A stretch of 64,000 nucleotides of DNA from Escherichia phage NHEP11, in the sequence record PQ511149.1. One strand, written 5' to 3'. The position numbers and the translations under genes were made by a program. Below the pieces are notes generated by a model. That model worked only from the letters and a program-made list of their open reading frames with translations. It made no database searches and was not told the DNA's origin. Positions within the stretch are counted from its first letter, which is position 1. Each line of letters starts with the position of its first letter. Below are positions 33,561 through 35,924 of this stretch, one piece after another.

Positions 33561-34562
33561 TTATTTCAGTAAAGTTACTTCGGAGATTTCCTCCCAACCA
33601 TCTTTATCAGTTGAAATAAAATCTGCTACATAAAGAGCCGTACGTAATGATACATTGCGAAGACGATATACGTTAGCCTTCATCCAGGACAATGCTTTAT
33701 ACGTTTCTGCATCCGTCAGACCACGTTTCTGCATCATGTCAGTAGATAATATTACATCTTCAACTCGAACCATAATCTCTTCATTAGAGTGTACTCCAAG
33801 GTCGAGATACACTGAACGAGATACTAAAGCTTGAAGGTGTGGGGCAAGTTTCGAACCGCGTTCTAACTCTTTATCGATATCAACGTTTGTAATGAAAACG
33901 ATAGTACCTTCAAACTCAAATTCTTTATCAATACCCTTATCATCGAGATAAGATGACGCAGTGCTCCAACAAACTTTGCGTTTATCTCCGGTATCTAATG
34001 CGGCTTTAAGAAGGTTCAAGATGTCCATATCTGAGAATACGTCAACGTCGTCGATTAAGAGAACGCTGTCTGCATCACGGTTGAGCCAAAGTTGTTCGTA
34101 AAGGCCAATACCAGAGATTTTACCATTAATGCTTTTGTATTTGATGAAACCATTATCATTAGCATTATTAAGTGCTTTATCCAGAGAATACGTCTTACCA
34201 ATACCTGCTGCACCTGAAATAATGAGTGAACGAATTTTGCCATCGATAATGCCATTCGTCATCATGTTCATTACTTTAAAGCGCTTGTTGATACGAGTTT
34301 TCATATCTTCAGTGCTTTCAACAACTGCAACTGGTGATGTCTCAGCTCCTTCCATTGTGATGTCTGATTTGAAGACCCATACTCCACGTTCAGAACCATC
34401 GATCATAACGAAAATTTTACCGTCACCTAAGTGGGAACATTCAGGATTAAGCTTTGCCGGGAACCATGTCTTTGTGGCAACATAAGAACCAGAGATTTCG
34501 TTATTACGATAGATACCTTTTTTGATTTGAACGTTGAACATTTTATTCTCCAATTTACTCAT
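33561..34562 (-). CDS. AAA-type P-loop ATPase
   Basis: 333 aa; Walker A GAAGIGKT, Walker B VLLIDDVD. Confidence 0.55.
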   Translation of the reverse strand: MSKLENKMFNVQIKKGIYRNNEISGSYVATKTWFPAKLNPECSHLGDGKIFVMIDGSERGVWVFKSDITMEGAETSPVAVVESTEDMKTRINKRFKVMNMMTNGIIDGKIRSLIISGAAGIGKTYSLDKALNNANDNGFIKYKSINGKISGIGLYEQLWLNRDADSVLLIDDVDVFSDMDILNLLKAALDTGDKRKVCWSTASSYLDDKGIDKEFEFEGTIVFITNVDIDKELERGSKLAPHLQALVSRSVYLDLGVHSNEEIMVRVEDVILSTDMMQKRGLTDAETYKALSWMKANVYRLRNVSLRTALYVADFISTDKDGWEEISEVTLLK

Positions 34563-34610
34563 TTCGTTTCGATAGGTCTATAATAACATGTTTAAAGCAA
34601 AAGTAAACAA

Positions 34611-34829
34611 TTATTTGCGACGAGATTTTTTGGTAAGAGGTTGAAAGAACACTGCTTTACCTGCAGGAGTCAAAGTAACTCGTAATGCATTACCGATTCC
34701 CAAGGATGCTTTAACAAGACCTTTAGATTTCAGTTCACCGAATGCTTGACGTTGGTCTGCATCACGAGTGTTAACCATAAGACCTTTATCACCAGCTTCA
34801 CGAATCATTTCTAACATTTTGGTTTTCAT
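34611..34829 (-). CDS. hypothetical small basic protein
   Basis: 72-aa ORF. Confidence 0.4.
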   Translation of the reverse strand: MKTKMLEMIREAGDKGLMVNTRDADQRQAFGELKSKGLVKASLGIGNALRVTLTPAGKAVFFQPLTKKSRRK

Positions 34830-34934
34830 TTTGTTCTCCTCTTGTTTTGATAGGTCTATAATAACAATATCCTAAAAGCATGTACACTACTTTTTAAAAA
34901 TATTTTGACCCCCTAAAGGGCCCGAAGGCCCTTA

Positions 34935-35924
34935 TCATTTATAGTATGAATTGTGGTTTTCGAGATAGACCTGTTCAAGGAAGTCATCCCAGAAACTCAT
35001 ATCTACTTTTTGTTGCATACCGTTCTTGGCAGCTTGTTCTGACGCATGTTCAACTTGGTCAACGATATCTTCTAGGAATTCTTGTACAGTTTTAAACGTA
35101 TGTTTACCAAGCTTAACATCGAGAATAAATGGAGCATCCTGAAGTGGGTAAACCAGGTCGCCGGTTTTGTAAATTTCCAATAATTGAAGTCCACCACGAC
35201 ATGCATGACTCAATGCTTTCCAGTCAATACCTTCGTTAGCTTCTGCCTTACGAGCACGTTCACCATAGTTCTCTTCTAGTTTAACAAGGATGGCATTGAA
35301 CTCTTTATTGGTTAATGTGTCTTGGAATTTACGGTCTAACAGATTATAGAATGTTTGCTTACCTGTTTTCTCATTTTCGGTTTCAACCCACGAAGCAAAT
35401 TCACCTATAGGCAGAACATTCTTCATATGTGATAAACGAATTACTGCACCATTATCAAAGTATTGTCCCCATTCATTAGAACGTTTAAGGGCTTGACGAA
35501 GAACAGCCAGTCGAGAACCCTTGACACCGTATTTAGAAGCTTGCTTACGGACATACCCTAAATAAGATTTCATGTTAGTGGTATAGAAACGAGACCTGTT
35601 ATCTTGAATATACTTCCATACATCAGGCAAATCAGATTTAACTACTAAACTTGGTGGAGTGTGAAGCATATCTAATGCGACAGTTTCACCATCCGAAGCT
35701 AGTTTAAAGAAATATTTGAGACTATACAACTCGTGGTCCACGTCGTATTTTGTGTTCTTAGAAGATGTGTTATTCGTGTTCTTGCTCATATGTTCTTTAA
35801 CGTTACCAGTCAAGATATCACGAGCATGAGGGACATAAATTTCTTTAAAATCGACGTCAGATTCAGGAGTAGACGTTCCATAAAGGTGACTACCAAAGTA
35901 GCCTTTCATAATTGTTTTCATCAT
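34935..35924 (-). CDS. nucleotidyltransferase-fold protein (pol-beta superfamily motif)
   Basis: 329 aa; N-terminal FGSHLYGTSTPESDVDF fits the hG[GS]-x9-13-DhDh signature. Confidence 0.5.
   Translation of the reverse strand: MMKTIMKGYFGSHLYGTSTPESDVDFKEIYVPHARDILTGNVKEHMSKNTNNTSSKNTKYDVDHELYSLKYFFKLASDGETVALDMLHTPPSLVVKSDLPDVWKYIQDNRSRFYTTNMKSYLGYVRKQASKYGVKGSRLAVLRQALKRSNEWGQYFDNGAVIRLSHMKNVLPIGEFASWVETENEKTGKQTFYNLLDRKFQDTLTNKEFNAILVKLEENYGERARKAEANEGIDWKALSHACRGGLQLLEIYKTGDLVYPLQDAPFILDVKLGKHTFKTVQEFLEDIVDQVEHASEQAAKNGMQQKVDMSFWDDFLEQVYLENHNSYYK

Follow-up and report, generated by a model that had tools for sequence, protein, structure and literature searches.

Three adjacent genes on the minus strand of Escherichia phage NHEP11 raise the question of whether they work together as one system or are simply neighbors. 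The genes are found at positions 33,561 to 35,924 of a 64,000-nt stretch of sequence record PQ511149.1 (hereafter the window, meaning the whole stretch that was analyzed), and they encode a nucleotidyltransferase (NTase), a small basic protein, and an ATPase. A first-pass annotation, made from the sequence alone, had described them as a three-gene unit. We confirmed the three minus-strand open reading frames (ORFs) (33561-34562, 34611-34829, and 34935-35924) and found that the unit is not conserved. The locus is better read as three independent, putatively early genes of the nrdC-mobD hyperplastic region of T4-like phages: a candidate RNA-end-repair NTase, a stand-alone AAA+ ATPase, and an inserted accessory ORF of 72 amino acids (aa). 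We give this reading a probability of about 0.6. The three genes are the following:

34935..35924, minus strand: nrdC.11 orthologue, a 329-aa pol-beta nucleotidyltransferase assigned to the RlaP family (PF10127).
34611..34829, minus strand: 72-aa basic ORF, an apparent accessory cassette gene that matches phrog_6001, is rare, and is missing in T4.
33561..34541, minus strand: nrdC.10 orthologue, a 326-aa AAA+ ATPase whose ORF reaches an upstream ATG at 34562 (333 aa).

To determine whether the genes travel together, we counted how often each occurs and how often they are linked. Searches with tblastn found the NTase in 1517 phage records and the ATPase in 1311, while the 72-aa ORF was found in only 137. 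In IMG/VR, a partner gene was counted as linked if it was located within 8 kb of the anchor gene. The NTase was near the ATPase in 9 of 69 ATPase-anchored loci and absent from the other 60, and all nine linked loci had an ATPase identity of at least 61%. An ATPase was near the NTase in 36 of 79 NTase-anchored loci and absent from 43. On one 173-kb phage contig, which contributed loci L017 and L131, the ATPase and NTase genes were more than 100 kb apart. The distant phages RcSimone-Hastad, Vibrio D528, phiN3, 6E35.1a, and phiAS5 also carry one of the two genes with no copy of the other close by. We expanded the search to cellular genomes, using one genome per prokaryotic species. This search uncovered 49 loci with full-length NrdC.11 relatives (32-52% identity), and the ATPase was found in none of them (0/49). 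These record counts, the linkage counts, the distant phages carrying a single gene, and the stem-loop and promoters described below indicate that the adjacency of ATPase and NTase is a lineage-specific gene order of enterobacterial and Acinetobacter T4-like phages.

The competing explanation is that the ATPase, the small basic protein, and the NTase make up one module. This could, for example, be an ATP-driven system for nucleotidylation or anti-defence, or one resembling a toxin, and it would include a regulator that binds DNA. The three genes are indeed adjacent in the window on one strand, and the ATPase follows the NTase, across gaps of 7-2300 bp, in those T4-like phages of enterobacteria and Acinetobacter whose ATPase is at least ~61% identical. 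Adjacency among close relatives is weak evidence, because gene order is generally conserved among T4-like phages. A terminator-like stem-loop and separate promoters split the NTase from the 72-aa ORF and the ATPase. T4 and most relatives lack the 72-aa ORF, which is located elsewhere in other genomes. The 60 ATPase loci without NTase, the 43 NTase loci without ATPase, the genomes with both genes more than 100 kb apart, and the ATPase-free cellular loci all speak against a module; PADLOC gave no matches, and neither it nor an NCBIfam scan gave anything above threshold. A three-gene operon or defence-like module was rejected on the co-occurrence counts. Comparative genomics thus largely refutes the module, and we regard it as very improbable.

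The independence of the three genes can also be seen in the signals between them, which are:

34916..34933, minus strand: GC-rich stem-loop just past the stop codon of the NTase gene, which forms the terminator-like part of a candidate promoter-early stem-loop (PeSL).
34858..34886, minus strand: T4-early-type promoter match before the 72-aa ORF, TGTACA-17-TATTAT with an extended -10 TG.
34580..34607, minus strand: T4-early-type promoter match before the ATPase gene, TTTACT-16-TATTAT with an extended -10 TG.
34558..34866: interval with a copy of a 31-nt direct repeat at each end and the 72-aa ORF inside.
35921..36394, minus strand: 157-aa predicted membrane-protein ORF matching phrog_944, whose stop overlaps the NTase start.

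Each of the three genes had been credited with a promoter-like element of its own. This held for the 72-aa ORF and the ATPase and failed for the NTase: its start and the stop of the 157-aa ORF upstream share 4 bp (ATGA), and there is no intergenic space. The overlap suggests translational coupling, and the probable partner of the NTase in both transcription and translation is the membrane-protein gene rather than the ATPase. In about nine further loci, a homologue of the membrane protein was observed upstream of the NTase. A generic sigma-70 promoter scan was not enriched in the region (14 found versus 13.9 expected from shuffles). The two promoter calls were made based on their position, their fit to the published T4/PST PeSL early promoter consensus TTTACW-N17-TAYWAT (PMC4122927), the 31-nt repeat that contains both -10 boxes, and the equivalent promoter in T4.

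PeSLs are mobile regulatory cassettes of T4-type phages (PMC2839356, PMC4122927; Arbiol et al. 2010, Comeau et al. 2014). The 72-aa ORF looks like a cassette of this type. It is a variable ORF in a hyperplastic region, and directly upstream of it we found a stem-loop (GGGCC-ttcg-GGCCC within AAGGGCC..GGCCCTT) followed by a T4-type, sigma-70-like early promoter. The 72-aa ORF is absent from T4, where just 114 bp separate nrdC.11 and nrdC.10. These 114 bp hold a stem-loop at the same place (GGGAGCC-ttcg-GGCTCCC, then a T-run) and a single early promoter (GTTTAC...TACTAT). The two copies of the 31-nt repeat in the window (34558-34588 and 34836-34866) are 87% identical, and a duplicated promoter sequence flanking the insert is also seen in known PeSL cassettes. 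The bracketing repeat and the lack of the ORF in T4 point to insertion of a cassette. The 72-aa ORF would have been inserted between NTase and ATPase by recombination at duplicated promoter/stem-loop sequences, and the comparison with T4 suggests that the cassette is mobile. It differs from other PeSL cassettes in that the stem-loop is present on the upstream copy only, while the copy before nrdC.10 is a promoter alone.

The product of the 72-aa ORF was correctly described as basic, with a computed pI of 10.8 and 16 lysines and arginines versus 6 aspartates and glutamates. The ORF has a strong Shine-Dalgarno sequence (GAGGAG), matched phrog_6001 with an E value of 7e-43, and was located about 11 kb from the NTase in Mosigvirus/Dhakavirus-like genomes. 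The protein may adopt a winged-helix fold. Its likenesses to MarR, IclR, and DUF7227 were non-significant (MarR/IclR-like structures in the PDB, E ~1).

The NTase and ATPase genes are themselves already known. The 3.5 kb around the three genes were 99.7% identical to Escherichia phage NHEP36, and 831 T4-like phage records were matched. The genes around the locus encode thymidine kinase, a y05I-family protein, gp43, gp44, and gp45, which identifies the phage as a Tequatrovirus, a T4-like coliphage with a GC content of ~37% in the window and most early genes on the minus strand as read. The T4 reference has nrdC.10 (hypothetical protein) and nrdC.11 (nucleotidyltransferase) at the same position of the nrdC-mobD region and in the same order. 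Both proteins are 77% identical over their full length to their T4 counterparts (NP_049708 for NrdC.10, NP_049709 for NrdC.11), and the strand and the presence of a stem-loop and early promoter between the genes also agree, so that on sequence grounds they are orthologues of the long-annotated T4 genes. The two loci differ in that the window alone has the 72-aa ORF between the genes, and in that a mobD homing endonuclease lies upstream of nrdC.11 in T4 whereas the membrane-protein ORF does so in the window. A COG3541 nucleotidyltransferase had been reported for nrdC.11, and an AAA ATPase for nrdC.10, in 2006 (PMC1524935).

We then asked what the NTase does. Sequence searches of the PDB with all three proteins gave chance-level matches only (E >=0.39). 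The pol-beta catalytic signature consists of hG[GS]-x9-13-Dh[DE] plus a third conserved carboxylate. The NTase contains G11-S12-x10-D23-x-D25, and G11, S12, D23, D25, D61, D63, and D85 were invariant in an alignment of 67 homologues reaching down to 39% identity, which leaves D61, D63, and D85 as candidates for the third carboxylate. The type of motif proposed earlier (GS-x9-DxD) therefore stands, with the spacing corrected to x10, still within the canonical range. The NTase matched PF10127 with an E value of 3.9e-11 and 43.5 bits, compared to a gathering cutoff of 23. Pfam describes this family as "RNA repair pathway DNA polymerase beta family". The precomputed PF10127 annotation was present on all NTase homologues listed, and PHROG 388 ("nucleotidyltransferase") was also matched. 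We assign the 329-aa protein, by these family matches and motifs, to the RlaP branch of pol-beta nucleotidyltransferases.

The AlphaFold2 model of the NTase, built from the 67-sequence alignment, had a mean predicted local distance difference test score (pLDDT) of 89.6 and consisted of an NTase core, a beta insert at ~177-201, and C-terminal helices at 206-328. Foldseek matched it in the PDB to ANT(4')/kanamycin NTase, the Joint Center for Structural Genomics NTase-like structure 3c18, Hailong HalB, and LinB. ANT(4') and HalB share the arrangement of NTase core and helical domain and were the best structural matches. The pol-beta-type fold expected by the first-pass annotation was thus borne out by structure prediction. 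No CD-NTase structure was found among the Foldseek PDB matches, and a CD-NTase or cGAS-DncV-like identity was rejected on this basis. An MNT/MntA antitoxin identity was rejected as well: the NCBIfam MntA model gave 12.9 bits versus a cutoff of 60, the protein has 329 aa versus the ~100-150 aa expected, and a separate HEPN gene was not found nearby.

The substrate had been left as unknown in the first-pass annotation. At the level of the family this is outdated. According to later papers citing Burroughs and Aravind, the name RlaP for PF10127 comes from linkage to RNA ligase genes. The distribution of RlaP in jumbo phages was reported to mirror that of RNA ligases, and phage RlaP was predicted to restore nucleotides removed by nucleases such as RloC, ahead of ligation (Iyer et al. 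2021, PMC7824862). In a preprint of December 2025 (PMC12776372), two Pseudomonas enzymes, PfRlaP and PaRlaP, added one or two nucleoside monophosphates (NMP) or deoxynucleoside monophosphates (dNMP) to the 3'-OH of RNA. They preferred Mn2+ and mimics of transfer RNA (tRNA) halves, and did not act on DNA or protein. Pre-treatment with RlaP partly rescued aminoacylation of a repaired tRNA that was short of one anticodon-loop nucleotide. The same study reported "three strictly conserved aspartates" in RlaP, placed T4 NrdC.11 in cluster 5 of the family network, and showed in the PfRlaP crystal structure that an N-terminal NTase domain and a C-terminal helical domain form a cleft, with the last helix packed on the NTase domain.

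The phage protein resembles the enzymes of P. fluorescens and P. aeruginosa in having GS...DxD plus further invariant aspartates, a PF10127 match above threshold, and, in its predicted model, helices that form a C-terminal domain behind the NTase domain. Cellular relatives of the phage clade are moreover linked to RNA-repair genes. Among the 49 cellular loci, a canonical full-length RlaP (PF10127, E 6e-81) was located directly downstream in eight (L162, L164, L168, L173, L176, L178, L180, and L201), RtcB (PF01139) was found within 5 kb in five (L165, L173, L174, L180, and L189), and a T4-Pnk-like gene was immediately upstream in two or three (L173, L174, and L196). In Sinorhizobium phage phiN3, the NTase homologue was flanked by RNA ligase genes on both sides. 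These neighbors support an RNA-repair role for the NrdC.11 clade. The tandem pairs of an NrdC.11 relative followed by a canonical RlaP were mostly observed in metagenome-assembled genomes of Desulfobacterales and Nitrospirota, often near RtcB and a Pnk-like gene.

By analogy with the Pseudomonas enzymes, NrdC.11 most likely uses Asp23 and Asp25 plus a third carboxylate for catalysis, and would extend the 3'-OH of broken RNA (tRNA halves, for example) by one or two nucleotides without a template. The product of RlaP carries a 3'-OH, which suits a 5'-phosphate ligase such as T4 Rnl1. RloC removes the wobble nucleotide of its target, and this lesion has been proposed to defeat repair by T4 Pnk and Rnl1 (PMC2610378). 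The nucleotides added by NrdC.11 would replace those trimmed by host RloC-type anticodon nucleases, after which "heal and seal" repair by the phage Pnk and Rnl1 would restore a usable tRNA. NrdC.11 may in this way have a counter-defence role.

Several observations weigh against RNA-end repair by NrdC.11. The biochemistry comes from one preprint on two Pseudomonas enzymes, which belong to a different sub-cluster of the family from NrdC.11 (cluster 1a versus cluster 5). The phage protein is ~80 aa longer than these enzymes and has an extra beta insert, and its alignment to PF10127 is partial, with residues 7-152 covering model positions 23-148 of 249, the N-terminal half. The nearest solved structures are HalB, an oligo-dA synthase, and antibiotic NTases, and not enzymes that modify RNA ends. 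The T4-like NTase gene does not adjoin an RNA ligase gene: a homologue of T4 Rnl1 was located within 8 kb of the NTase in only 2 of 79 viral loci and was not found in the other 77, and neither Rnl1 nor Pnk was found in the 64-kb window. Of the 43 NTase loci without an ATPase, 17 had NAD-salvage genes as neighbors of the NTase. Finally, T4 remains viable when the nrdC.11-mobD.3 block is lost (PMC9825161), so any role of NrdC.11 must be conditional.

Some of these points would fit an NTase that acts on another acceptor. Such an enzyme could AMPylate a host protein or toxin, as in the MNT-like neutralization of HEPN RNases, synthesize an oligonucleotide or signaling nucleotide like HalB, modify a small molecule like ANT, or carry out a step of NAD or ADP-ribose metabolism. 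The structural matches to HalB and ANT(4') and the NAD-salvage neighbors are compatible with these options. The PF10127 match, the RNA-repair neighbors of the cellular relatives, and the failure of the characterized RlaP enzymes to act on protein or DNA are not what they would predict. We consider another acceptor unlikely, and continue to favor RNA 3' ends as the predicted target.

The NAD-salvage loci have a characteristic arrangement (L119, L121-L123, L127-L133, L135, L138-L140, L148, and L149, with the NTase at ~8001-9000). They contain an NMNAT+Nudix gene (PF01467+PF00293) upstream of the NTase and/or an NAMPT gene (PF04095/PF18127) downstream of it, and in five loci both flank the NTase. 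These genes correspond to the NAD+ salvage (NatV/NadV-like) of Aeromonas, RB43, and Slopek-type phages. Macro-domain genes were also frequent neighbors.

We analyzed the ATPase in the same manner. Its start is most likely the second ATG (Met8, at 34541), because a GGAG is located 8 nt upstream of it, the first ATG has no Shine-Dalgarno sequence, and T4 nrdC.10 and the NHEP36 annotation both start at the equivalent methionine. The protein first reported as a 333-aa Walker A/B ATPase thus keeps its Walker motifs and more probably has 326 aa, starting at the ATG preceded by a ribosome-binding site. In the 326-aa numbering, Walker A (GAAGIGKT, 110-117) and Walker B (LLIDD, 160-165, with D164 and D165) were invariant in 41 homologues. 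Sensor-1 N219 was also invariant, and S241-R242-S243 forms an arginine-finger-like motif (R242). The signature elements of AAA+ proteins, namely Walker A and B, sensor-1, arginine finger, and lid, were all present and invariant or nearly so. Judged by these elements, NrdC.10 is a bona fide AAA+ ATPase.

In the model of the ATPase (pLDDT 89.5), an N-terminal beta domain of five strands (1-64) is joined by a linker of low confidence to the AAA+ core (77-250), which is followed by a helical lid (253-326). A conserved insertion with an invariant W192 was found in the core at 188-210, before the sensor-1 strand. The protein matched phrog_1250 ("unknown function") with an E value of 2e-161. Matches to the Pfam models AAA_22 and AAA_16 were weak and sub-threshold, and no Pfam or NCBIfam model was above threshold. 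Foldseek returned many AAA+ proteins at E 1e-5 to 1e-4 with template modeling (TM) scores of at most 0.46, including dynein, NSF, NorQ, PspF/NtrC1, RuvB, RFC, Hda, and ORC, and none of them stood out. Compared to clamp-loader, RuvB, MoxR, and sigma-54-activator AAA+ proteins, NrdC.10 shares the additional-strand catalytic-E (ASCE) core, Walker A and B, the sensor-1 asparagine, the SR(S) position, the sensor-2 arginine region, and the lid. It is unlike them in its unique N-terminal beta domain, in the insertion at 188-210, and in having no solved close relative.

The neighbors of distant ATPase homologues point to DNA transactions. We examined 48 distant viral ATPase loci (32-56% identity), mostly from marine T4-like contigs. 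Their commonest neighbor encodes a superfamily 2 (SF2) helicase, a homologue of T4 UvsW by tblastn (E 1e-24 to 1e-28). In at least 15 loci, this gene shares the strand of the ATPase and is located 170-600 bp downstream of it. Genes for ribonucleotide reductase and RecA/UvsX-like proteins were also close to distant homologues. In Vibrio phage D528, a DNA helicase gene is found on one side of the ATPase and the clamp, clamp-loader, regA, and dUTPase genes on the other. The loci with the ATPase and the UvsW-like gene are L024-L040, L047, and L063 (ATPase at ~8001-9000; 32-44% identity), and also L004 (3989-7411).

These replication genes, together with the AAA+ core, could also mean that, instead of being a novel remodeller, NrdC.10 is a gp44 paralogue that serves as a clamp-loader-like or RarA-like factor in replication. 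Besides its position in the replication module of phage D528 and beside UvsW in marine T4-like contigs, the ATPase weakly matched the clamp-loader family phrog_168 (E 2.9e-4), and RFC and RuvB were among its Foldseek matches. An hhalign comparison with the window's own gp44 (E 9.6e-4) aligned Walker A, Walker B, and sensor-1 and placed SRS on the clamp-loader SRC, but its probability was just 22%. Foldseek ranked dynein, NSF, NorQ, and sigma-54 activators level with RFC (TM <=0.46), no model of Pfam or NCBIfam was above threshold, neither the N-terminal beta domain nor the insertion at 188-210 is typical of clamp loaders, and the phage already encodes gp44 and gp62. We find a clamp-loader-like identity quite improbable.

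Instead, we favor NrdC.10 as a stand-alone AAA+ protein with an N-terminal beta domain, which would be expressed from its own early promoter and would not be a partner of the NTase. Its placement in a replication/recombination module, upstream of UvsW, in distant T4-like phages weakly suggests that it most likely assists DNA replication or recombination as an ATP-driven accessory remodeller. A reservation about this role is that the linkage of ATPase and UvsW could just reflect a conserved order of core genes in marine T4-like phages.

A more specific proposal can be built on these results. NrdC.11 could be the missing third enzyme of T4 tRNA repair, which re-adds the nucleotide excised by RloC, and separately NrdC.10 could be an AAA+ partner of the UvsW helicase in recombination-dependent replication. 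We hold this proposal as possible but doubtful. If true, repair of RloC lesions by NrdC.11 would explain why the gene is retained in T4-like phages.

The locus carries little weight as a discovery, as the genes, their domain assignments, and the NTase family are already in the literature and GenBank. It was in T4 that RNA repair was discovered to be an anti-defence strategy. T4 can do without NrdC.11, whose family has now been shown to lengthen damaged 3' ends of RNA, and this raises the question of whether phages can reverse tRNA damage in which nucleotides are excised. The comparative results would pair the NTase with Pnk and Rnl1 rather than with the neighboring ATPase, and the ATPase with UvsW and replication.

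Other features were observed in the window, all on the minus strand. At 36404-36946, a 180-aa protein, the orthologue of T4 mobD.1, matches both halves of the T4 y05I-like putative transcription factor family (PF24449, E 2e-36, and PF24448, E 1e-13). At 29481-32486, consecutive ORFs of 316, 315, and 329 aa are paralogue-sized and correspond to T4 nrdC.3, nrdC.4, and nrdC.5. None of them has a Pfam family, their C-termini resemble coiled coils, and the 329-aa ORF matches phrog_2257. At 7588-10090, two genes adjoin the DNA polymerase gene 43. One encodes 561 aa, with a sugar-phosphate NTP_transferase domain (PF00483) at the N-terminus, and the other a 211-aa SIS-domain protein (PF01380). T4 is not known to have counterparts of these two genes. 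In RB69-like phages, similar genes make the sugar donor for arabinosyl-hydroxymethylcytosine DNA.

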